A DNA stretch of 64,000 bases from Azolla caroliniana. Taxonomy: Eukaryota > Plantae > Polypodiophyta. The notes under the pieces were generated by a model. The model ran no database searches. It had not been told where the DNA came from and was given only the letters and a program-made list of their open reading frames with translations. Positions 3,001 to 51,487 of this stretch are shown in pieces. Numbering within the stretch: position 1 is the first letter of the stretch; each line of letters opens with the position of its first letter. Both the position numbers and the translations under genes were made by a program. The DNA lies in NCBI GenBank assembly GCA_043228905.1, contig JBHGNT010000001.1, positions 1,736,001 through 1,800,000 of the forward strand. Reading direction: 5' to 3'.

Positions 3001-4620
3001 CGTAAGAGCGATGTGGTTAACCGCCTAAAGTCTTATTATATGGATACGAATAGCCTTTTTACATGATGTGATGTTTTTCAAGAAGGTTATATTTGTGTCC
3101 ATGTTATGCAATTTCAATTTAAGGGTAGCAAGTATCATCACAAACAATAATCTTGTGTGAACAATCCATCGTGTTATTTGTTTTCCACCCAATTAGAAAG
3201 GGTGTGACAAATTTGCACATCGAAAATTTTGTGTTGCATATCACATGGTGGTGAGCATCATCTCATCTCATCAATGAAATATTGTTAAATGAGATAATAC
3301 AAAGAGGGTGACACGTTGATTGCTCATAACCATCTAGATGGTTCATGATCACAAGGCCTTCCATCAAGACAAACTCCAAGAATTAAACTTCTTCAACAAT
3401 CTATATTAGATTGTCTACATCATACGGAAATGTACAAAAAGACTTTGAATATTATTGTTGGAATCCAATGTTTCCATACAAATTTGACATTAGAAGGTTC
3501 TCCGTGTGAAGCTCTGTATTTACAATGAAAAGTGGGATACATGATGGTAATTATACCTTGCCTCATCAAGGTAATTCACTATATGGAACTTATAGAAAGA
3601 AAATGTCATCAAATTTACTACGATGATTTAAAGCATATGGAATACAAATAAATAGTACAACTTTTCAATAAAGTGAACAAAAATGAAGTCAAACCTAAGT
3701 CTACGATCTTAACTTGTTGTGTTATTCATGCATGCCCTGGTACATTATGGCGCAAAAAGAAACACAAGGTTTAGGCATATCAAATTTCACCTCCTATTGT
3801 GTTTTCTTGCAATTTTATTCAACTTACCAATTATGTAGCTTCTTGAATATATGTATTACATCACTTGACATGAATAATACATTTATAGTAGTTATGTTTA
3901 TTGGAATGTTGTTGCCATTGCCCATGGTTAGCTTGGCTATTCGTGGAAAAGTGTTTGAATTAATAAGAAATGGGAAGGGTTGCAAGCAATGCAAACAATT
4001 TTCTCACAAGCAATGCATCAAAAATAAATTGTACAAGCATAAACTATAGTACTCATGTTGTGTCCTTATATGAAAACCCTTAAAGATGAGGATAATAATG
4101 GTTCAAAAAATTAACCAATCCTTTGTAAGAAAATTGGAAGGAATGGTCATGCTATATTTAAAATAAATGCGTTGGTATGAAAAATGTTTCCAATAGTTCC
4201 AATCAGACACACCAATTATATGAGCCAATAATTCATCTCTAAACATACATATTCTGTTGTTGCATTGTTGTCGCCTCATATTCATCCTTCGTGAAAAATA
4301 AGGTATTTCACCCAACATTGTTACAATGTGACCTACAATCTCACCACAACATTATGTGTCATTCTAGTGCATTTCAAGGTGACAATATAAAAATGCACAT
4401 GATTGAGACTATCGTTAGCTTATATCATTAGGTTTGGAAATTGTGAAATGTTTTAAGTTGCGTTTAAAAGATGTCAATGAGTAGCGTAATCACTTTTGTT
4501 TGTGAACCATTTCTTCGTACATTGATGGTAGTAATGAAGGTATAAATATTTGTAAGCAGTGATTTTTAGCTTAAAGGTCAAAGTGTTTAGTTTAATATAT
4601 TTTAAACATTTTTCATAGTT

Positions 4621-4693
4621 GGTCCTATGGCCCAATGGATAAGGCGCTGGTCTACGAAACCAGAGATTCCAGGTTCGACCCCTGGTAGGATCG
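4621..4693 (+). tRNA. tRNA-Arg(ACG)
   Basis: 73 nt cloverleaf: acceptor stem GGTCCTA/TAGGATC, anticodon arm CTGGT-CT ACG AA-ACCAG, T-loop GGTTCGACCC, T-runs just downstream (Pol III terminator). Confidence 0.96.
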
Positions 4694-4843
4694 AAACGGT
4701 AACCTTTTACGCTTTTTTCATTGGGCGTAACAAAATATGCACACTTGAATCTTTTTAATTATGCAAGCAACCAACTTATGTCGTGAATTTATTCTAGCCC
4801 CTCACAAGCACACTATTTAGTTGACGAAAATATATTTTCAAGT

Positions 4844-5260
4844 ATGTTAGACTTTATCACTAATGAAGTGAAGAGATATCTCATTAGAGAAAGCACCCCA
4901 TTAGGTTTCTACCAAATGAAAAAACTCTTCTTTTTCAATAGACTAGTTAACTGCGGTTACCCTCCGTCCTTTATACTAAAAAGCTATAAGAAAATACCTT
5001 TTAATCTTAGAAAAACACTCCTATATCAACCCAAAACTATTAGTTCCCTTAACCCCACAATCTTTTAACTTAGATACACCAAACATACCCCAAAACTAGG
5101 CATTCATAGTTTTCTAAAAAATCTCTATAATGACTTAATGTTAGATCCCAAGCTTACAAGCATCTCACGCCCTTTCGTATGTTGGACAAAATCTAAGTCC
5201 TTACATGCCCTCCTAGTTAAGACTAAGTTTTCAAACAATCCACCAAAATCCCCCACTTAA
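4844..5260 (+). mobile_element. 5'-truncated Penelope-like element: C-terminal RT thumb region, with one in-frame stop at 5066-5068
   Basis: Translation FITNEVKRYLIRES...FFNRLVNCGYPPSFI...PTIF*LRY...PFVCWTKSKSLHALLVK resembles the recalled PLE pattern FIxGELxRY...RLxxRGYP...PxVxxxxxxNLxxxLV. The frame continues across the TAA to a stop at 5258-5260, and a hammerhead ribozyme follows. Confidence 0.75.
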
Positions 5261-5346
5261 AACTAAGACTAAAGTTTCAAACAATCCACCCAAATCCCCC
5301 ACTTAACACTAAGTTTTCAAATAATTCACCCACATCCCCCACTTAA
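5222..5346 (+). repeat. three tandem ~40-45 bp repeats at the end of the PLE ORF
   Basis: ACTAAGTTTTCAAACAATCCACC(A/C)AAATCCCCCACTTAA occurs three times with small variations. Confidence 0.85.
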
Positions 5347-5577
5347 TATTATCCTAAATCCCCCTTTTTCATCACATTAAGAACTCCCCCCTCACCATCA
5401 TCATTATACTAATTCCCCCTCTCTCATTCCCTATCACTTTCCTACACACATTTCTCTCTCTCTCTCTCATCACCACATTCTATTCTATCTCATCTACTAC
5501 ACAAATCAAATCCTCCCCACTCCTTTTCTCTCACTCCCTCTTCCTTCCCACCCCTTTATAAATCACATTCTCTTGTT

Positions 5578-5640
5578 GTAATGGTCTTTGCACTGAAGAG
5601 CTCCATTATTGAGTGAAACTAGTTTGCCTAAGACCACTAC
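5578..5640 (+). ncRNA. minimal type I hammerhead ribozyme (Penelope-type)
   Basis: Stem I TGGTCTT-T-GCA, core CTGAAGA, stem II GCTC-cattatt-GAGT, GAAA, palindromic ACTAGT stem III, cleavage triplet GTT, then TGC-CT-AAGACCA closing stem I. TATAAA lies at 5557-5562. Confidence 0.8.
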
Positions 5641-5659
5641 CCTCTTTGAATTAAAAACA

Positions 5660-5763
<104 letters not shown>

Positions 5764-5896
5764 GTGTATGTTGCCTACTTTCTCTTGTTTAGCTTAAGCA
5801 CCCTCTAATCGTCGTGTGCCTATCCCTACGCACTCCTTGTTTCGACCATTTGGTCCTAGTAAGATATCTAATGTATTTTAAATGTTTCTTAGAGTT

Positions 5897-5969
5897 GGTC
5901 CTATGGCCCAATGGATAAGGCGTTGGTCTACGAAACCAAAAATTCTAGGTTCGACCCCTGGTAGGATTG
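5897..5969 (+). pseudogene. decayed duplicate of tRNA-Arg(ACG)
   Basis: Same sequence as 4621-4693 with five C>T/G>A changes in the anticodon stem, variable region, T stem and acceptor end; part of a ~255 bp direct repeat (4593-4847 vs 5869-6122). Confidence 0.85.
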
Positions 5970-6342
5970 AAACATAACCTTTGACGCTTTTTTCATTGGG
6001 CGTAACAAAATATGCACACTTGAATCTTTTTAATTATGCAAGCAACCAACTTATGTCGTGAATTTATTCTAGCCCCTCACATTCACACTATTTAGTTGGC
6101 GAAAATATATTTTCAAGTATGTCAAACTTAAATTAAATTGTAGCATGTCAATATCAGGTAATTACATGTTTCAGTGATGATACCATGTTGTAAAAGCATA
6201 GTTTGAAAAATTTGTTTTGGAACCCTATCTTTTCAAGTTCATGTGATGCAACATCGAGTTAACTTCAAATCTAGGGCAACATGCATGCAATCTTATATGT
6301 ATATAATAACCTACACAAACAACAAATCAATCAATAACAATA

Positions 6343-6795
6343 TGTTAGAGTTATGGTCTAACGTAAGCATATGATGAGATAAAAGATATAAGAAATAAGA
6401 AAGGTGCGAGAGAAAGAAGGGTGCCGATCCACCTGACCACCCCCGAGCGAAGGGATCAAGACAGACTGGAGCCTCGATCGGCGTCCCATACCACCGTCGT
6501 GGCGTCAATCGTACCTAGTGTTGGCGTGCTCGCTACAAGAGTTGACCCACCACAATAACAAAGTCTCGACGTAGTCAAGATATGATGAAATGAGGGTAGC
6601 TAGGTCTCATATTTATAGCGACACCCAAGGCCCCCAGGCAAGTTCACACTTGGCCTAATGGGTTGTCTCAATCCCGAGGATTAAAAGTAATCCTCCCCTT
6701 CTTTACACTCTCGTTTAACCCTCACACTTATCCACGTGCATAGAATACTACGGTAAATTCTCACCACAGGATATTATATGATCATGCCCCTAACA
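6343..6795 (-). mobile_element. solo LTR (453 bp)
   Basis: TGTTAG...CTAACA inverted termini flanked by the 5-bp TSD CAATA; a TATA-like CTATAAAT is on the minus strand. Confidence 0.88.
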
Positions 6796-6974
6796 CAATA
6801 GGTCGTATGATGTTGGGTGCCATTAACGAGGTGAGGAGTATTTGTGGAATGTTGGTTCCACAAGTTATTTGTTAGATCCAAACATGCATTTAGTAATTAT
6901 CTCACACACACATACACAGATAAACATCTCATGCTTGGTACATCTCGTGTTTATCTCATAATCGCCTCAATGGT

Positions 6975-7018
<44 letters not shown>

Positions 7019-7740: not shown

Positions 7741-8573
7741 AAAAATGCAAGGAGATTCTGATGGGGCGTGAGATGCATGTTGAGATTGAAAGAAAGGGGT
7801 TATTGGATGAAAACATTATGCTTGGACGTGTCGAACATGAATAAGATTGGCTACAGCCATTCAGCATGGCTATACAATATTCATTGTAATATTGGATTAT
7901 CTTGTATATTGCCTCTGGTCACTTTAATTTTAATACCAATGGAGGATAATTTTTTATGAAAAAAAAGGTCACAATTATTCTACAAAACTAGTTCTTCATT
8001 GGTGTGAAGAGCTCATAAAATATTGATTACATGGCTAGAATTCTTAAATACGAGGAACAATATTATAATTCTTATACGTGACACGATTCTTATAAGGTCA
8101 CACATGTGTATGGACCATGTATAAACAATTAAGGAATCACATGTATAGTTTTTGTACAACACATAGACTATGTGTATGTGTATGAGAGAGGGTAACATGA
8201 GTGTAATTTTACTTTCTCGCTACCTTCTCATGTTATCATCGTTGATTGCAACTACTCTCTTGATATCAACATTGGAAATGAGAGAGCTCAGGCTCAAGGG
8301 GATTGCAATTTTGTAACTACTCATTAGTTTCCCCACTACTTGTGTGATCATACATTTTGTTGGAAAGTTGAATTTGATATTGTGACATTATATATATACA
8401 CTATATAATATTATATTCCTTGTCTAACAAGTATGTTCTAGAGTCTAACCTAATGTGTCCTCTTTGTACAAGTGCATGTTCTGAATATATTTGCTAACCT
8501 ATGTTGCAAGTATGTTTGCTACGTTGATCAATCATCATTGAATTGTATTTGATGTTAACCTCGATATTATTTG

Positions 8574-8977
8574 AGCACCTTGGCCCCCTAATTTCCCAAT
8601 AACACCAAAGTTGGAGACAATTATGGTTGTTGTCATAGAACAACTAGTCACTTCGATCAACACATAATCCATCCTCACTCAGTATCCTAAGAATTGGGTG
8701 TGGATTCACTCGATCAAGTTCCATTCATACATATTAATGGTGCTTCTATTAAACATTCTAATTGTAGTGAATTGTGGTTATTCAAGCACTTTGGCCCCCT
8801 AAATTCCCAAAAACACCAAAGTTGGAGACAATTATGGTTGTTATCAGAGAACAACTAGTCACTTCGATCAACACATAATCCATCGTCACTTTGTATCCTA
8901 AGAATTGGGTGCGGATTCACTCGATCAAGTTCCATTCTTACATGTTAATGGTGCTTCTATTAAAAATGCTAATTGTA
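8574..8977. repeat. tandem duplication with a 211 bp period
   Basis: AGCAC(C/T)TTGGCCCCCTAA...GGTGCTTCTATTAAA occurs at 8574 and 8785. Confidence 0.9.
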
Positions 8978-9470
8978 TTGCTTTTATTTTATTCAAAAGA
9001 GAGGCTTAAAGTATGACGAATTATTTTTGGAAATATAAAATTATATAGTTGGCGATTGTGATGGAGGATTTCAAGGTAAAATGCATCAAGATCTCATTCT
9101 AAGATTTGTTTTTGAAATATCTCTTTAATTTGGAACGGTTAACAAACAATCATTATTTACATTAACAATGACAACAAACAAATCAAATATTTGCAATGGG
9201 CAACACTAATGCTTTATTATCATGAACACAATCTAGATGTTACGAAGTTTTGACAACTCAAGAACATCCAATATCAATTGATAGCATACTGATTAAATGA
9301 GAGACAATGCAGAGAAGCTTGATATAAGATATTATATATCAGATGGAATTTTGATTATATATATGGGATGAGATTATGTATCGGGTAACAAATGCCATGG
9401 GTAACAAATAAGTTGTCGTCATAGTGATTTACTTTATTATTTTATAAAATGTTGTCTTTATCATACAAGC

Positions 9471-9953: not shown

Positions 9954-12900
9954 TCATAGCCTGTTTCATGTAAGCAAGAGGAAATACTGTATGTACAACC
10001 GAAGAAGATCTTACCCTAAAATAATATGTCCTATGCATTAACCCTACCTACCTAGCTCTAATGTGTAAGTTCGCCTTATCCAAGTAGTAGGGATACTTCA
10101 TTAATGTGTTATCAAAGGAGAGTAACGTGCATGGGTACATTCATTACGAACGAAAATGCTGCCATGCGAGAGTTTAATTCAACCAATGCAAAGCAATGTC
10201 ATTACGGTAGCAGATAAGGCACAATAGAATTATTTTTAAATGAAATAACGGACAATGGATATGATGTGCAAAAAATGGATGAAATAGAGGAACTGCATGT
10301 TTATGTCAGATAGAACCAGCGAGAATCTTCAATCGATGAAGATAGAAGCTGTCGAGAGAGAGAGTTTAGCTTTAGTAAAAAAAGGCCTGTAAACCAACCC
10401 AAAAAGGTTGTGACTCTGTGAGTTCGGCTCTTTCGTGTGAAGTGTAAAAACAACTTTTTCATACTGTTTGAGATCGAGCGAATGAAACAGTTGTTGCTTG
10501 GGAGAAAATAGCTTTTAATTAAACCTTGGGATTCACATACTTTCCAGAACACCATAGAGTGAAAACGATATCATTACAATTTATCCAGCAAAGCTAATTT
10601 GAATTATTAACAAAAAACTTAACTTCAACATGATGATACGACGATCATTGAGCATTGACAGGGAGCCATCACAATAATTTACGTCCACCCTAAAATAAGT
10701 TTATTAAGCATGGGCATCAATTAGGTGTTTATGCCAATGGTTTACCATATCGTCAAACACTTATGTTACTAGTACTTAATATCATTATGGAAGTCATGGA
10801 TTGGAATTTTGAGATTGCTTTTTGTGATCAATGATCATTAAGGTTCGTTTGTTAGACCTTCAATGGAGCCACAATTTGTCTCATGAGCAGCATGCACAAG
10901 TTAGCTTTGACAAAGTCAAACATAAAATTCATTGAGTAAATTATTATTATGATTATAGGAAGGAGAAAAAGAAATGTTTTTTTGCTAGGTTGACTTGTTT
11001 TAGATATAAGTCCCTTGCTACTAACTTAGGAGGATTCAAATTGAAGAGGGAGGACAAAATAGTCACATGGTTCCATTTCTCAAAGAATGAAAGTGTAGGA
11101 AAATGGCACCAAACAAATGAAGTGAACATGTCCTTACTATAAACACAAATATATATTTCAATATGTATTATCATACATTTTCAAGCACTACTCATGAATG
11201 TTCTACTGATCAACAATGTCTAAGCACCCTTAAGCTTTGGAATGGAAAAAAAAAGATTGAACTCCCATTTCTAAAGGAGGTGATAGCATATTATTTTGGG
11301 ATATACTTGTGGGAGATCATTGTAAGGGCAAAGAAACATATACATACACTTTACATTTGTCTAGGTGGTTTAGAAACAAATCACTCTAGAATTAACCATC
11401 TAGTCACTTTCAAGAATGGAAGAGCACCAAGTGGCTGAATTGTTGTTTTGGTGGATTGCATAATAGGAGTCACTTCCAAGATACTAGCTTAGAAAGAAAA
11501 TTGTGGCTTACCCAAAGGAATATGAAAGAACCATGGGAGAACACACCTCTACTAGCTTTTCCATTGTACATAGAGAAAAACAAAACTTAAATAGGTGAAT
11601 AAAATTTCTATATAAAAGAAGGCTAGACTCTAGCCCACAATACATACGTTATTACCTAAGGTTAGTGTGATCTGTATAACCATAATCCACACACCAAGAA
11701 GGTAAATCATGTAAATGAAGAAACAAATGTGAGTTTAGAACATCATACTTACCCTAAGTGGAGGAAACGGAGAAGATTGGTGTAGAAGTCATACAACTCA
11801 CCCTCTAACCCTATGTCCACCTTGCATTTGCTAGGCAAGCCTTTGTCGTGTGAAATGATCATAGACCGGCCAAACTACCATGCGCACATTAAAATTCAAT
11901 CCCCCATAAATAATCAATATAGTTAGCAACAGCAAATATTTCAAATACTGCTAGCATTAGTTTAAGATGCACGTTCTGACGTTTTTCCACTTACTTTTCC
12001 GTAATGTGATTCTTCACACAGGAGAATTGCTAGAGCTGCATCTGGCATCTGCATCATTTAACCACAATAGATCTGACTGATCTGTTGTTGAGGTATGATT
12101 AAAAGCTTTACACATAGTTAAGACTGTGATATATTTGAGGCTTGATGATGATGACCATAAATTATTACAACCAATATAATGATGGAGATAAAAGCTTTAC
12201 ACATAGTTAAGACTGATATATTTGAGGCTTGATGATGATGACCATAAATTATTACAACCAATATAATGATGGAGATAAAAGCTTTACACATAGTTAAAAC
12301 TGTGATATATTTGAGGCTTGATCATGATGACCATATAATATTACAACCAACATAATGCTGGAGATAAAAGCGTTACGCATAATTAAAACTGATATATTTG
12401 AGGCTTGATGATGATCATTGATGACCATATAATATTACAACCAATATAATGATGGAGATAAAAGCTTTACACATAGTTAAAAGTTAAAACTGTGACCTAT
12501 TTGAGGCTTGATGATGATGACCATAAAATATTACAACCAGTATACCTATATGCTTCAGATATGCCATGATAAAAAAATTATACGTCATTTACACTTGAGG
12601 TTTGATGAAAGAAAAAGATTTGCATATGATCTTAAGTATACTGTATGATAGCGATGAAGAAGAAGAAACAACATATAATTGATCTGCATTGAAGTGAGTT
12701 GATGATTAGGGATATCCATGTTAACATACCTCCCTTATTTCATTCTTCAAACATAATCTAGCACAAGCTTCTGCAACTCGCAGCAAGCTGTGGAGTGTCA
12801 CGAGGGATGGATATTCACACTTATCCTCAACACAATCTATGACATATTCCTGGTCACGTCTCAAGGCAAGATAGTACGATTGAATAAGCTTACGAGCTGA

Positions 12901-15900
12901 GTCACTAATGCTCACTGAACCGATTCTCGTGGCTTCCACTAAATGATGTTGTAAATCTGCAGATAGATATTGATTCTTCATATTACTACTATCCAAGCGG
13001 CTGATAAGAGCTTGTAAAAGCTCTCTATCATTAGAATACAAATCCAAAGACTCTTGTAAGACGATATCAAATCCTTTCACTAGCATATTAGTTGAATTCT
13101 CCGAAGATTTGTTTGTATGTTGGTGATTTCTTCCAAGAGTAGCCCAGATAGTAGCACCGGATCGATACTCATTTGCACCTGTTGTCTGCCAATTATCAAA
13201 TCTAAATTTTCCTGTTTCTCTTACTGCATCGGATAGTATTGTTATTTTAGATTTGGAGAGCACAGAGATGTCAAGAATAAGAACTCCTCCTTTAGCTAAA
13301 TCAAGTTGTCCTGCATATAAAATTTGTGTGTCTCCTGAGGAATCTTCTTGCTTTAACTTCGACTCAAGCTTATTATTAAACATGCCTTCTGAACCATACA
13401 CACTTCTGGAAGCATATAACCCTGCTGCTTGAAACGAGCTCATTGACATAGCAGAAGGAAAACCTTCAGTAGAAATAAGTATATGGATCTGTTTCCTAAT
13501 TGAGCTGAAAGGAGAAGCGGCTATTTTCTGTCCAGATGCAGAAAGAAGACTAAAGTGATTGAAGCACTCAGGCATATTCTGACTTTGATCAGATTTAATG
13601 GGATTAACGTTCAGGTTGCTTGATACCAGGCTTAGCAGAAGAGACACGGGTAAAAGCTTTGGCCATACCTCATATGTATTACGGCCATGACATATGGCCT
13701 TGCAGAGCTTATCCAAGGATACATTAAGACCATCTTTGGTGCTGAAAATCGACCCCTTCTGGAGAGAAGGGGCGGGGAAGACTTTAATAGAATTTAAGTT
13801 GAAAGGTGTGAAGATATTGTTGGCGATGATCTTCACTTCAGCAAAACTATAGCCACTCGGTGGCAAATTTACAGATTTATTGCAAGAAATAGTTGCTACC
13901 ATTGAAGCGTGGCCGATGATTGATACAGAATCTCCTATCTCAAGCTTTCCTGTCAGATCGTCGAAGAGAGAAACCAGGAATGTTGATTGCGAGAAAGGTA
14001 TATCTGAAGCGACGCTTCGCACTGGACCAAGAAGAACTTCCTGTTTTCGACAGAATGAATGGAAAGAGCTTTGATTAACATAGAATACTCATGCGCACTA
14101 TATTGAGGATCATTAGATTATATACACAATTCAATCTTATGACGAGAGGATTTTTTTGTTTTACGACTTGATAGCGGAGAAAATCATGTGATTCAATGTC
14201 TTCAAGGATCCATGTGCGGCAGCACCCAGAAGAAGGAAGCATAAGCTCAGCTCCATAATACAAATCGTAAGTAGATTTGCAGAGTTTGCAAATAAAACGC
14301 TGGCGAAATATAGTGCCAAATCTTCCTTCTGTCAAGGAAGACTGACTTATATATTATCCAGAGATTGAACATGAAAATCAATGAAATCAGAGTAGCATAT
14401 AATAAAAAATTAGTCAAATATTTGCAGTACACAGATATTAGTGTACAAATTAAGCTGCACGAGAAGCCAAAAATATATAGATATGACGCTAATGAAATAC
14501 AGCACAAAATATCCTTTATGAATGATATTGATTAAACAAAGTTAAGCAGGCCATTCACAAAATCTTAACTATGCCGAAATAAAGTAGCTATATCCAGAAT
14601 TTGAAACAAAGATTCAAGAAAACAGATAGAATTTAGACATGGCACTGCCAAAATACTGCACACCGTCATCTGTCAAAGAAGACATATCCAGAGATCGCCA
14701 CCAAAAGAAAATAAAAATGGAGGGAGACATTCAGAGAACTAGCAGACAGAATTCAGATATCGTACTCACGAAAAAATACCGGCACCTTTTATTCTGCCAT
14801 GAAAGTAGACGTTTAATGCTGCGATTGAAACACAAATCAAATGAAGGGCCGGCATATTATAGCTGAGAAGCTAAAGTTGAACACGAGGAAACCGCAACTC
14901 TTCTGCCAAGGATTAAGAAGCATAAATACAGCGAAGTCTCTAGCAATCGTTCCTTGCGGATCGTCTAGGTCAACTCGTTTAGATATAACGATGATAAACA
15001 AAATTTAGTAAAACTTCTGTCAAAATGAATAGGCAATATTATCCAGAGAGGTCGACGCACAAATTAATTATTAAGCAAATGATTCAGAAAAGAGAGACAG
15101 AAACTTCATGTAATGCTGAGGAAAAACAGTAAATTTTATTTTGCTATGGAATCAGACGTGTAACCTAGAGATAGATATATAGCACAAATTAAGCTAAAGA
15201 AAAGACAGAATAAGAATATGTATGATCTCAGGATATGTCCTTCGAATGCTCGATATGGCATACACGATGCCATAAACGTGAACAAGCTGCGATATGCGGG
15301 AATTAGACATGTCCTCGTTGAAGCTGTAACTAGAAGAGGTCAAGTCTACAGAGCGACGATGTAAAGCTTCGACAGGAAGGAGAGGAATGGGAACAGAAGT
15401 GAGACGAATCCAAAGCCGAGAGCCGCGAGCAGGAAGAACAATATCTGACAAACATGAATCATTTACATAAAGCTTCGCTTGGTTCCTGAGCAGAATATCT
15501 GATCGGTACTGATCGTTAGAATTGAGTTGACTAAGAACATGGTCCATTACTTCTGTTGCAAATGTGTCTGGATCTCGTAGAACTGATTCAGCGAGTTCTT
15601 GATCATGGTCTAGAAGTTCCATGGCATCGAGCTCTAGAACGTCTAATTGTTCATCACTGTTCGATAGCTTTTCTGCCAGTATCGCAACCTGTGAGCCACT
15701 CTTGCCGCCATAGCTGGTGCTTCCTGCGTGACTTAGCTGTTGATCTATCCATAGAGCAGCTAAATTCTCCACGATCAAGATTCGATTACTCTGATAACTT
15801 GATGATGGCGTGATAGGGTCATTATTGCTGGTGCATGATCTTGAACTTAGTGAATCATTAAAAAGATTTGGTCTTTTTTCCACAGAATTCTGCTTCTTTT

Positions 15901-46165: not shown

Positions 46166-49100
46166 TGTTGGGATTACGGTCCCTCCGGATGGGATGGTCA
46201 GATGTCCGGGAATCGGGAATGAAGACCCGAATGAGGAGTACCCGGTTTCGGATCCGGATGATGAAGACCCGGTTTCGGATCCGGATGATGAAGACTCCGG
46301 CTACGGAGCCGGATGACGAATGTACCCGGAGAGAGATCCGGATGTGGGGACATATTTGTGAATATGTTTGCCAAGGGCCCTCTAGGCTATATTTGTAAAT
46401 AGCCCGAAAGTCATATGTGTATAAATATGACTTAGGGCAAACAGTTTTGTTGTTGTTGCTCATTTTTCTGTTTTCCACTTAGAGGGAGCGAAGTGATAGC
46501 AGCTGAGAGAGAGAGAGAGAGAGAGAGAAAGGAAGAGGTCGACGCCTCTGTGTAATACCGTCGCCTGTGGCGAGGACAGCGAGCTCAAGGTCGTCGCCTT
46601 GCAGCTCGCCATTGTACATTCCCTGCGTATAGAGATAGTTGGAGTCTTGCACTCCCGTGGTTTTTCCCGTCTAGGGTTTTCCACGCTAAACCCTGTGCAT
46701 TCGAGTCTCTCTCTGTGTTTTCGATTTACTGCTGCATTGACTCGTGTGTCCTCGGTTGTGGCCGAGAGGTGAAGGTTGAAAGCGTCAATTTCTAACAATT
46801 TGGTATCAGAGCGACTGCAGTGCAGAAAATGGAAGGCGGCAGCAGCGGGCAGCCGGGGATGATGGTGCTGAATGCGCAGAACTACGCCGACTGGAAGATA
46901 AAGATGGAGGATCTGCTCATTGTTCGGGACCTGTATGAACCGATCGACAGGTCGGAAATACCCAAGGGGGTACTTGAGACGGAATGGAGGCTTCTGAACC
47001 GGAAAGCCGTTGCAACCATTCGGCAATACGTCGACGTGAGCGTTCTACAACATGTGGCGAATGACACCAACGCATATGAGATGTGGCAGAAGCTGTCGGG
47101 CCTCTACGAGAGGAAGAATGCGTTGAACCGGACCTCCCTGATGAGGAAGATAGTGAACCTCAAGTACCGGGACGGCGAGAGTATGGTGGAACACGTAAGC
47201 ACGTTCATGGGATTTGTGAACCAGCTTGCGGCGATCAAGTTCCCGTTGGAGGATGCAATGCAAGCCATCATGCTGATGTGTACATTGCCGGAAAGCTGGG
47301 AGAACTTGGTGGTGACTCTCAGCACCTCCTGCACCGAAGATAACTTGTCCCTCCAAACGGTAAAGACAAGCATTTTGAACGAAGAAGCGCGTCGGAGAGA
47401 TAAAGAACCGGCCTCCGATCCGAAGATGCTGCTTACCGAATCGGATCGGGGAAGACAACGGAACCGGAGTCCGTAAAGACGGGAGAAGTCGGGGACCCGG
47501 TCGCAGTCAAGAGGAAGGCCCGCATGCTTCCACTGTGGGAAGCCGGGGCACTTCCGAAAGAATTGTCGGCATTACCGAAAAGACAACGGAGCCGACGACA
47601 CCGATTCGAAGAAGTCTTCGGAACGGAACGGTGCTTACCGGGGAGCCACGGACCGGAATGGTTCGGATCGGCGAGGGCAGGACCGGAAAGGAACGACGGC
47701 ACTCGCGACAAGTGAAGAGGAGATCATGCTCATCACCGAAGAAGGTGAACTAAACATTGCCGGCGATGAGACTACCTGGGTGGTCGATTCTGGAGCGTCG
47801 TTCCACCTGACCCCGGAAAGAAGATACTTCTCATCCTACACAGCCGGTGAGCATGGCTGTGTTCGGATGGGAAATGAAGGTACGTGCCGGATTGCCGGCA
47901 TAGGAGACGTGTGGTTGACAACCTCGACCGGATGCAAAATGTTGCTGAAGGATGTCCGACACGTTCCGGAGGTTCGATTGAACCTGATTTCGGCCGGGAG
48001 GCTAGACGATGAAGGCTACACAGGTAGCATCCGGAACTGCGTAATGAAGTTCAGCAAGGGGAGCCTGATAGTGGCTCGAGCCCGGAAAGTCAACACACTG
48101 TACCTTATGAATGCCTGGTTGTGTCCGGAGGAGTTGAACGTGGCAACCGACACTGCCGGTGAGCTGTGGCACAAGAGACTGTGCCACATGAGTGAGAAGG
48201 GGATGAAGAGGCTTGCAGAAGACAACCTTATTCCAGTGAAGCATGTGCACCTGGAGAAGTGCACTGATTGCCTGGCCGGTAAGCAGAACCGAACCTCCTT
48301 CCACTCAAGGCCACCGACGAGACGTAGCGCACCATTGGAGTTGGTGCACACTGACGTGTGTCAAGTAGAAACGAAGTCACATGGCGGAGCCCAGTACTTC
48401 GTGACATTCATTGATGACCACAGCCGGAAGCTGTGGACGGCACCGTTGAAGACAAAGGACCGAGTGTTGTGCGTCTTCAAAGAACTCCACGCGAGAGTGG
48501 AAAGGGAATCCGGCAAGAAGCTGAAAGCGATACGAGCGGATAACGGAGGGGAATACCGGGGGCAGTTCAAGGAGTACTGTCGCTCGAAGGGAATCCGGCT
48601 CGAGTTTACTGTGCCGAAGACGTCGGAACTGAACGGGCTGGCCGAGAGGATGAACCGGACCATAATGGAGAGGGTCCGGAGTATGCTGGCGCATGCGAAA
48701 TTACCCAAGGGGTTTTGGGCTGAGGCAATGTCGACGGCGACATACGTGATAAACAGATCACCCTCAGTACCTTTGGACGGAGACACGCCGCAGAGAGTGT
48801 GGACCGGAAGGGAAGTATCCTACCAGCATCTGAAGGTGTTCGGGTGTCTCGCATATGTGCATGTGGCAAAGGACCGGAGAGGAAAGCTAGATCCAAAGAT
48901 CCGGCCATGCATATTCCTCGGTTACGGCGATGACGAGTTCGGCTACCGAGTATGGGACCCGGTCGACAAAAAGATATTCCGGAGTCGTGATATCATCTTC
49001 ATGGAGGACAAGACACTCGCCGACTGGGAGTCGGAGAAGAAGATGAAGAGCTCCAAGTCGACCGGTGAGGATAAACTCTACGAGGAGCAGTCCCGACCGG

Positions 49101-51487
49101 CAAGGGACCGGTTAGCACTCGAGGATCCGGCCGAAGATGGTGAAGAAACAGAACCGGCCGAGGAAGATGAAACTGATACCGGAACCGGCCCCGATCCCGA
49201 AATGGATTCGAATGAAGAGGAAACGGAGGAGCCGGTTACCGAAGCTCCGGAACGGAGATATCCTCTAAGAGAGAGAAGGGCCCCCCGGAGATTTCCGGAA
49301 CCAGAGCACGTGCTGCTAACCGACGAGGGGGAGCCGGAGAGTTTTGAAGAAGCAAAGCTTGACACCCATAGCCGCAGGTGGTTAAGTGCCATGCAGGAGG
49401 AGATGGATTCCCTGCATGAGAACCACACATATGAACTTGTGGAGTTGCCGAAAGGAAAGCGGGCACTTCGAAACAAGTGGGTGTTCAAGCTGAAACCGGG
49501 AGATGCCGGAAACCCCTCGAGATACAAAGCCAGGATCGTGGTGAAGGGGTTCCAGCAGAAGAAGGGCGTCGACTTCGACGAGATATTTGCCCCGGTAGTG
49601 AAGATGACCTCCATCCGGACGGTGCTGAGCATAGCGGCAAGCATGGACCTCGAGGTAGAACAGATGGACGTGAAGACGGCATTCCTTCACGGTGACCTCG
49701 AAGAAGAGATCTACATGCAGCAACCGGAAGGATTCGAGAAGAAAGGGAAGGAGCACCTGGTATGCCCGTTGAAGAAGAGCCTTTACGGACTGAAGCAGGC
49801 TCCCCGGCAATGGTACCGGAAGTTCGACTCTTTCATGACCGACGAAGGGTACCACAAAACGCAGTCCGATCACTGCGTGTTTGTGAAGAAGTTCGAAGGA
49901 GGAGACTTTCTAATACTCCTCCTGTACGTGGACGACATGTTGATCGTCGGACGGGACCAGGTCAAGATACGGATGCTGAAGAAAGCGCTTCACCGAACCT
50001 TCTCAATGAAGGACCTGGGTCCGGCGAGGCAAATACTAGGGATGCACATCATCCGGGACCGGAAGAAGAAGCAGTTGTGGCTGTCACAGGAGAAGTACGT
50101 GACAAAGGTGCTTCACCGGTTCAACATGTCGGAAGCAAGACCGGTCGGGTCAACCCTCCCGGCAAACTGCAAGTTGTCCAGCAAGCAAAGCCCCAAGACA
50201 AAGGCTGAGAAGGAGGACATGATGAAAGTACCATATGCCTCTGCCGTCGGAAGCTTGATGTACGCAATGGTGTGTACAAGACCGGACATAGGATATGCAG
50301 TCGGAGTGGTGAGCCGGTACATGAGCAATCCCGGCAAAGAGCACTGGAACGCGGCCAAGTGGATACTCCGATACCTGAAGGGCACGACAAACGTGTGCCT
50401 CCGATTCGGCTCCGGTAAGCCCGAACTCGACGGCTTTACCGATTCGGATATGTCGGCTGATGCAGATACCAGCCGGTCCACATCAGGGTATGTGATGATG
50501 TATGCAGGGGGAGCTGTTTCGTGGCAGTCGAGGCTGCAGAAGACGGTTGCGTTGTCAACCACGGAGGCGGAGTACATGGCGGCTGTTGAAGCCGGCAAGG
50601 AAATAATATGGATGAAGGACTTCATTAGAGAGCTCGGTATCCGGCAGGAGGAGTACCGACTCTACTGCGACAGTCAGAGTGCCATCCACCTTGCGAAGAA
50701 TGCGGCCTATCACTCCCGGACAAAGCACATCCAGCGAAGATATCACTGGATCCGGGAAAGGATAGAAGACCAGGAGTTCGTGCTGACGAAGATCCACATG
50801 GACGAGAACGGGTCAGATATGCTGACCAAAGTGCTCACACCCGACAAGCTGGAAGCGTGCCGGAAGAGGGTCGGACTGGAAAGACATCCCATGCCGAAGT
50901 GAAGGGGGAGTTTGTTGGGATTACGGTCCCTCCGGATGGGATGGTCAGATGTCCGGGAATCGGGAATGAAGACCCGAATGAGGAGTACCCGGTATCGGAA
51001 CCGGATGATGAAGACCCGGTTTCGGATCCGGATGCGGGGACATATTTGTGAATATGTTTGCCAAGGGCCCTCTAGGCTATATTTGTAAATAGCCCGAAAG
51101 TCATATGTGTATAAATATGACTTAGGGCAAACAGTTTTGTTGTTGTTGCTCATTTTTCTGTTTTCCACTTAGAGGGAGCGAAGTGAGAGCAGCCGAGAGA
51201 GAGAGTGAGAGAGAGAGAAAGGAAGAGGTCGACGCCTCTGTGTAATACCGCCGCCTGTGGCGAGGACAACGAGCTCAAGGTCGTCGCCTTGCAGCTCGCC
51301 ATTGTACATTCCCTGCGTATAGAGATAGTTGGAGTCTTGCACTCCCGTGGTTTTTCCCGTCTAGGGTTTTCCACGCTAAACCCTGTGCATTCGAGTCTCT
51401 CTCTGTGTTTTCGATTTACTGCTGCATTGACTCGTGTGTCCTCGGTTGTGGCCGAGAGGTGAAGGTTGAAAGCGTCAATTTCTAACA
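46166..51487 (+). mobile_element. full-length Ty1/copia LTR retrotransposon
   Basis: 5' LTR 46166-46797 and 3' LTR 50913-51487 (TG...CA), TSD CACAA, tRNA-iMet PBS TGGTATCAGAGC at 46801, PPT GAAGGGGGAG at 50901, domain order gag-PR-IN-RT-RH. Confidence 0.98.
46829..50902 (+). CDS. copia Gag-Pol polyprotein with one in-frame TAA at 47474-47476
   Basis: Gag (NYADWKIKMEDLL), zinc knuckle CFHCGKPGHFRKNC, protease WVVDSGAS, integrase (HKRLCH...C..C, LVHTD, NGLAER), RT YVDD, RNase H (ALSTTEAEY, TKHI). The ORFs at 46820 and 47726 share a frame. Confidence 0.95.

Follow-up and report, generated by a model that had tools for sequence, protein, structure and literature searches.

A hammerhead-like motif lies beside the remains of a PLE in the 64-kb stretch of Azolla caroliniana DNA analysed here (the window), and it raises two questions: whether the motif is a genuine ribozyme or a decayed relic, and how the element that carries it came to be inserted. 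The preliminary description of the locus reported a minimal type I hammerhead with a palindromic stem III, and suggested that its GUU triplet had arisen from the usual GUC or GUA through C>T decay. It overlooked that the host element has no endonuclease and is bordered by a 262-bp target-site duplication. The notable part of the locus is this interstitial endonuclease-less (EN-less) element with its very long duplications, not the ribozyme.

The hammerhead motif and its GUU triplet

The motif consists of the following parts, all on the + strand and, below the first line, read from the sequence:

5578..5640, +, hammerhead of type I (core at 5593-5599 plus 5615-5618; stem II 5600-5614, with G-U at its base in the window copy)
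5583-5588/5630-5635, +, distal stem I
5590-5592/5625-5627, +, proximal stem I, GCA/UGC
5593-5599, +, core CUGAAGA
5600-5603/5611-5614, +, stem II, GCUC/GAGU
5615-5618, +, core GAAA
5618-5623, +, stem III palindrome ACUAGU
5622-5624, +, triplet GUU, with the predicted cut site after U5624

The core, the 4-bp stem II and the palindrome are thus all present where they had been described, as is the upstream TATAAA (5557-5562), and the motif indeed runs in the sense of the PLE ORF, the remnant upstream of it being a same-sense PLE RT thumb. The long stem I held only in its inner helices: the outer 3 bp depend on a window-specific C>T at 5638, and the sister motif folds without them.

When both strands of the window were scanned with a hammerhead descriptor, 5578..5640 was the sole match, compared with 0.07 (loose) or 0.01 (strict) matches per window in 100 dinucleotide-shuffled versions. 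The motif has the type I core CUGANGA/GAAA/NUH and three stems, with stem I open. An Rfam scan of 4500-7000 gave no hammerhead match at E<=10, and the isolated motif is of modest stability (fold z-score of -1.96). The case for a hammerhead therefore rests on conservation and comparison.

For this comparison the own genome (523 Mb) was searched, and 40 matches of 89-100% identity were scored among 81 candidates; 38 of these loci, which are referred to as family 1, were examined fully, the window copy included. Compared with most sisters, the window copy carries C>T changes at 5606, 5614 and 5638. The second of these turns the pair at the foot of stem II, G-C in most sisters, into G10.1-U11.1; it recurs in four other family-1 copies, and CpG decay has hit C11.1. 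As a truncated solo copy with this G-U pair and no partner in cis, the window hammerhead is probably inert.

The triplet has another history. GUU was found in all 38 family-1 copies (36 parsed, two by alignment), including ones with intact 662-aa ORFs, and in the sister families of the same genome, which share 52-66% identity over the RT thumb. U17 is constant, as GUU or AUU, in every detected motif of relatives with at least 39% RT identity. Derivation of GUU from GUC by C>T decay, with the motif a relic, could appeal to the GUC and GUA triplets of distant relatives (27-33% RT identity) and to the C>T changes that the window copy does carry; it fails because the same triplet stands in every family copy and in the relatives, and we consider it practically untenable. 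GUU is fixed in the clade and is not a decay product. It is also counted among the cleavable NUH sites (PMC3138052).

Conservation was followed further among 76 metagenome loci encoding related RTs. The descriptor matched at 29 of them, and many of the remaining 47 stop too near the ORF to reveal a motif. In all 29 stem III is palindromic, in five different sequences (ACUAGU, ACAUGU, ACCGGU, ACGCGU and AUGCAU), and in one sister family of the own genome ACAUGU replaces ACUAGU. The distal stem I is swapped between families from GGUC/GACC to GACC/GGUC, while stem II measures 4-6 bp, with an offset of 0 between 9 and 10.1, in all own-genome families. An alignment of 21 chosen sequences has 11 invariant core columns; with the named structure, the cells of stem I and of the palindrome are 100% paired, and two-sided changes occur in 9 of 10 pairs, so that compensatory changes are seen in stems I-III. 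Over the whole structure 95.6% of cells are paired, and covariation reaches 0.587 as against 0.139 for shuffled and at most 0.137 for slid alignments, counts that kinship among the sequences inflates. This covariation emerged only with distant relatives included and the named structure imposed; given 11 close sequences, RNAalifold chose an inactive pairing of the core, with no two-sided change. Core and stems are hence conserved among sister copies and relatives.

In a monomer the A15.1-U16.1 pair has a probability of at most 0.001, so that the palindromic stem III is unstable on its own. The modelled dimer does as well as two monomers or better (-32.8 vs -32.4 for the window sequence and -34.4 vs -32.6 for sisters), but when cofolding is left unconstrained its minimum is 3-5 kcal/mol lower than the double-hammerhead fold. 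Since the palindrome covaries as dimer cleavage predicts, its covariation supports cleavage as a dimer and bears out the assignment to PLE type I hammerheads. The motifs described by Cervera and De la Pena in 2014 likewise have a type I core, a palindrome at 15.2-16.2, G10.1-C11.1, a pseudo-LTR setting and a proposed dimeric action (PMC4209133). The label "minimal" fits loosely: with a stem III of the canonical palindromic 2-bp form and a covarying distal stem I, the motif comes closer to the canonical type reported for Selaginella than to the metazoan minimal hammerheads (PMC4209133). The latter have a longer stem II (7-8 bp) and one more nucleotide between 9 and 10.1, both absent here (PMC4209133). 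The window motif is a genuine hammerhead of the known PLE kind, with self-cleavage predicted, and by itself it is an expected feature of such an element.

An endonuclease-less host element

The hammerhead belongs to the following set of features:

4851..5866, +, 5'-truncated family-1 copy of a two-ORF endonuclease-less PLE (40 genomic matches; sisters reach further 5' and share the same 3' end)
4853..5260, +, remnant of the RT thumb/C-terminus, interrupted by an in-frame stop (5066-5068), in the same sense as the hammerhead
5212..5351, +, three ~45-bp direct repeats at the ORF end and in the 3' UTR
5557..5562, +, TATAAA of the pseudo-LTR, a putative promoter, read from the sequence
5660..5759, +, element-internal (CT)n tract, variable in length among copies
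5829..5855, +, conserved CGCACTCC motif with a 4-bp hairpin, recognised by eye across families; a candidate RT-binding or initiation signal
5856..5866, +, 3' end of the element, ~10-25 nt before the position of the ORF1 ATG in tandem units and in a 93%-identical relative

Intact sisters encode an RT ORF of 662 aa that ends at the position equivalent to the end of the window remnant. Neither end of the family RT ORFs showed a GIY-YIG domain. A PLE GIY-YIG query gave no match among the best-scored candidates in the genome, and PF01541 gave three matches, none near a PLE RT; both counts are lower bounds, since only top candidates were scored and a divergent trans-acting nuclease could escape. The upstream ORF1 runs into the RT ORF at A_AAA_AAC, in a -1 frame overlap. 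This slippery site is followed by a hairpin (-20 to -24 kcal/mol) in four of the four elements checked, suggesting that RT is made through -1 frameshifting. Three long helices are predicted in the ORF1 N-terminus (residues 81-260 folded, pLDDT 88); the predicted fold of these residues had no PDB match at E<=0.001, and an ESM Atlas search with ORF1 gave no usable match. The element thus combines a PLE RT lacking GIY-YIG at both ends with an upstream ORF1 of predicted coiled-coil type and a putative frameshift signal, as in EN-minus PLEs. In several ORF1 copies (for example L056:4870-4950) a PN-repeat is coded by (CCCTAA)n, a telomere-like tract within the ORF.

In a FastTree phylogeny of 83 RTs the RT clusters with proteins of Selaginella, Ginkgo and Cryptomeria (SH-like 100), away from the EN+ rows, and its motif A-B distance is 61 aa, as against 62 in the Selaginella protein. 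We therefore describe the host as a Coprina-like, endonuclease-less, two-ORF land-plant PLE, a placement drawn from a tree that holds no named Sm1, Sm2 or Pt1 Coprina sequences. EN-minus PLEs are known in Selaginella and conifers (PMC8557442, PMC9033089, PMC13159263, PMC6431247), and the Coprina group, with Sm1/Sm2 of Selaginella moellendorffii and the conifer EN(-) PLEs, likewise has a DKN-motif RT with neither insertion-in-fingers nor GIY-YIG. It also shares with our element the helical ORF1 and frameshift signal, the pseudo-LTR type I hammerhead, 5' truncation and tandem units. The literature searched on ferns made no mention of Penelope.

Two other assignments were considered and rejected. 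Membership of Chlamys, Naiad or PLE-X was discarded on the lack of a CxC motif, of an insertion in the fingers and of an N-terminal GIY-YIG: PLE-X of Chara and Selaginella, in the Chlamys clade, is also EN-less and hammerhead-bearing, and genome-wide in Chara, but its CxC motif and the insertion-in-fingers of its clade are missing here (PMC8557442). Nor is this a defined 1-kb non-autonomous element or a Helitron, as sisters extend further 5' and truncation points are scattered.

The order within head-to-tail units is TATA - hammerhead - (CT)n - CGCACTCC with hairpin - ORF1 - A_AAA_AAC with hairpin - RT. In most close relatives TATA is placed at -37/-38 relative to C3; in close relatives the ORF1 ATG follows the CGCACTCC motif by 52-56 nt. 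By eye, the adjoining hairpin is GACC/GGTC in the window and GGCC/GGCC or AACC/GGTT in other families. Dispersed copies stop between this hairpin and the ORF1 ATG, as the 93%-identical relative shows for family 1. The hammerhead in the pseudo-LTR lies ~240 nt upstream of the element 3' end, and dispersed copies keep the site uncut; the template for insertion was therefore presumably either a read-through RNA that had escaped cutting or a circular RNA formed by re-ligation.

Head-to-tail arrays contain full-length units of 4.7 kb and 5.6 kb that are 99.5-99.9% identical within an array (L172, L056 and L173 at G000:C22:8945500-8968500; L054, L057, L058 and L061). Units share indels and substitutions specific to their own array, in keeping with the copying of a single template unit, whether by a rolling circle or by expansion at the DNA level. 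In the L061 array both units seen have broken ORFs and the core change U4>C; an intact ribozyme is thus not required for arrays to form or grow. A close relative (L093:5490-5815) has two hammerheads ~250 nt apart past the RT, with the look of a retrozyme-type short repeat.

Elsewhere in the window we noted a 455-aa unbroken ORF with a weak MCM_lid match (12721-14088, - strand; E 2.4e-5), a 211-bp tandem pair (8567-8988), a cluster of ~88-bp repeats (12100-12605) and a pair of direct repeats ~4.7 kb apart (46166-46623 / 50913-51313).

Insertion sites and target-site duplications

The window copy is flanked by a long direct repeat that contains a tRNA gene:

4593..4854, +, left target-site duplication copy, 262 bp, 92.7% identical to 5869-6129
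4621..4693, +, tRNA-Arg(ACG) gene in the left duplication (Rfam 59.5 bits; ARAGORN)
5869..6129, +, right target-site duplication copy, counterpart of 4593-4854
5897-5969, +, second tRNA-Arg(ACG), in the right duplication (Rfam; ARAGORN)

The last 4 nt of the left copy (ACTT) also match the 5' junction of the element. The pair differs by 6.9%, or 3.4% per copy, vs an element decay of 2.4%, and is thus of about the same age as the insertion.

The 38 family-1 loci comprise 37 with a 3' end and 36 independent insertions, two being one duplicated insertion. Duplications abut both junctions at six of the 36, with lengths of 262 (window), 125, 818, 982, 484 and 111 bp. Interrupted duplications occur at two more insertions, of ~1.8 kb at one and of ~3.8 kb at the other, where the repeat breaks off 492 nt before the called junction. 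At six others, paralogous empty sites reveal deletions of 2-50 bp; two are ambiguous in repeats, and 20 have no assigned target-site structure. Four duplications (L032, L037, L039 and L042) are confirmed by paralogous empty sites holding a single copy, and cross-paired flanks yielded no such duplication in 208 control pairs. Short canonical duplications of at least 12 nt were absent, the best candidates measuring 10-11 nt. Targeting of tRNA genes, which the window might suggest, was rejected: a tRNA lies within 1.5 kb at only 4 of 30 loci.

Family 1 also departs from its relatives in location. Coprina-group EN-minus PLEs are described as generally restricted to chromosome termini (PMC8557442, PMC13159263, PMC9033089), whereas family 1 is interstitial, with duplications of 0.1-3.8 kb: 34 of 36 matches on large contigs lie >0.9 Mb from either contig end (four small-contig matches left out). 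Family 1 therefore lacks the telomeric location of EN-minus PLEs. It has no telomere-repeat stretch beside the hammerhead, where reverse-complement telomere repeats mark the Coprina/Athena type; family 5 has a degenerate CCCTAAA tract downstream of its hammerhead. The telomere repeat of this genome is TTTAGGG, as expected of a land plant.

Among 16 sister-family loci, at which junctions are approximate, one insertion has a 119-bp duplication with (TTTAGGG)3 at the 5' junction and another a duplication of 127 bp. At L049:944-9150 (G000:C3) two PLE families are joined head to head across a 230-nt spacer, all within one 42-bp duplication, and each has telomere repeats near its own 5' end. The sister-family array on C22, with units ~99.9% identical, lies as a whole inside one 3,826-bp duplication of 99.97% identity.

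Some sister copies were found in other settings. A family-5 element at the start of G000:C7 (L174:1-7900) breaks off within ORF1, where ~3.7 kb of CCCTAAA repeats form a cap, in an orientation opposite to that of a telomere-primed insertion. Copies of three families lie in a 178-bp satellite (flanks of L003, L034, L035, L054 and L057), two of them at most 52 kb from contig ends.

A search of the literature other than Gladyshev and Arkhipova 2007 and Lin et al. 2016 turned up no report of EN-minus PLEs making kilobase duplications; long duplications or interstitial EN-minus PLEs may have been described before, in those two papers or in supplements.

A model of insertion and its alternatives

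From the long duplications and short deletions, the telomere repeats at junctions and the two-family composite, we infer break-primed reverse transcription: the family likely inserts by patching existing staggered DNA breaks. On balance we hold it probable that a conserved pseudo-LTR type I hammerhead serves a Coprina-like EN-less PLE, that copies paired through the palindrome are cut after GUU, and that insertion takes place at staggered breaks. Read-through RNA of a tandem locus, holding at least two hammerheads, would fold as a double hammerhead and release unit-length RNA, the cut being predicted only when two copies pair. The RT, presumably a frameshift product, would then initiate internally by the CGCACTCC motif on uncut or re-ligated (circular) RNA, and on circular RNA such initiation could also yield multi-unit arrays. 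The primer may be a 3' end that a break or a pair of nicks in host DNA provides, and filling in the stagger would generate the target-site duplication. In mammalian cells, tandem duplications are known to arise when complementary 3' overhangs are filled in (PMC8355091), and tRNA ligase circularises hammerhead-cut RNAs of retrozymes (PMC7229834). A comparable internal initiation, downstream of the hammerhead and near the ORF start, is described for the Anolis Poseidon element PAc, which differs from ours in its C-terminal GIY-YIG and whose ribozyme overlaps the start codon, cleavage needing protein (PMC11167929).

Alternatively, the hammerhead might cleave, perhaps with the help of protein, and only limit read-through or RNA level, while uncut RNA transposes and arrays arise by unequal crossover between pseudo-LTRs. 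U17 makes a permitted but slower NUH triplet. Every dispersed copy contains the intact site with ~240 nt downstream of it, and the core mutation shared by the L061 units points the same way, as do the hammerhead mutants of the lizard element PAc, which still inserted in vitro (PMC11167929). Against this stand the array-specific indels and substitutions that the units of an array have in common, and the position of the C22 array within one nearly identical duplication, which fits a single concatemeric insertion, although it does not prove one. We regard this alternative as rather unlikely, and still as the one to be taken most seriously.

Other explanations concern the breaks. A targeted nuclease, either a divergent one in ORF1 or one supplied by another element or by the host, could nick the strands far apart in the manner proposed for Dualen LINEs. 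Dualen-4b_cRei of Chlamydomonas and R9 of rotifers also make very long duplications (median 900 bp and 126 bp, respectively), in the former possibly via two endonucleases (PMC9977147), and many other retroelements inhabit this genome. Dualen LINEs, however, encode both endonucleases themselves, whereas searches of our element found no nuclease fold or motif; insertion sites show no common target motif by eye, duplications are mixed with deletions, and neither the telomere repeats at junctions nor the two-family composite favours a dedicated nuclease, which makes this explanation improbable. It is less probable still that the element landed between repeats that already existed, such as a tandem tRNA duplication, LTRs or segmental duplications. 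Partial flank matches at L038, L043 and L073 are most likely of this LTR-LTR kind, and L079 may be a segmental duplication; the six duplications, however, adjoin both junctions within a few nucleotides, and the single-copy empty sites, the empty control and the similar ages of duplication and element in the window all speak against it.

Patching of staggered breaks, together with dimeric cleavage, may be taken further, in a version that we put forward as doubtful: a land-plant EN-less Penelope lineage would have left the telomere and, by healing staggered double-strand breaks, spread along the chromosomes, with up to several kb of host DNA duplicated as a routine, and its GUU double-hammerhead circles would be copied round into multi-unit insertions. 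The element bears on two questions, the genome-wide insertion of EN-less PLEs, whose integration route was left open by Craig et al. 2021 (PMC8557442), and the purpose of PLE hammerheads; both can be put to the test, thanks to young families whose ORFs are intact, to near-identical arrays and to a palindrome series provided by nature. With kilobase target-site duplications, EN-less PLEs would also contribute to the local duplication of genes in large plant genomes, and in the window the duplication copied a host tRNA-Arg gene.
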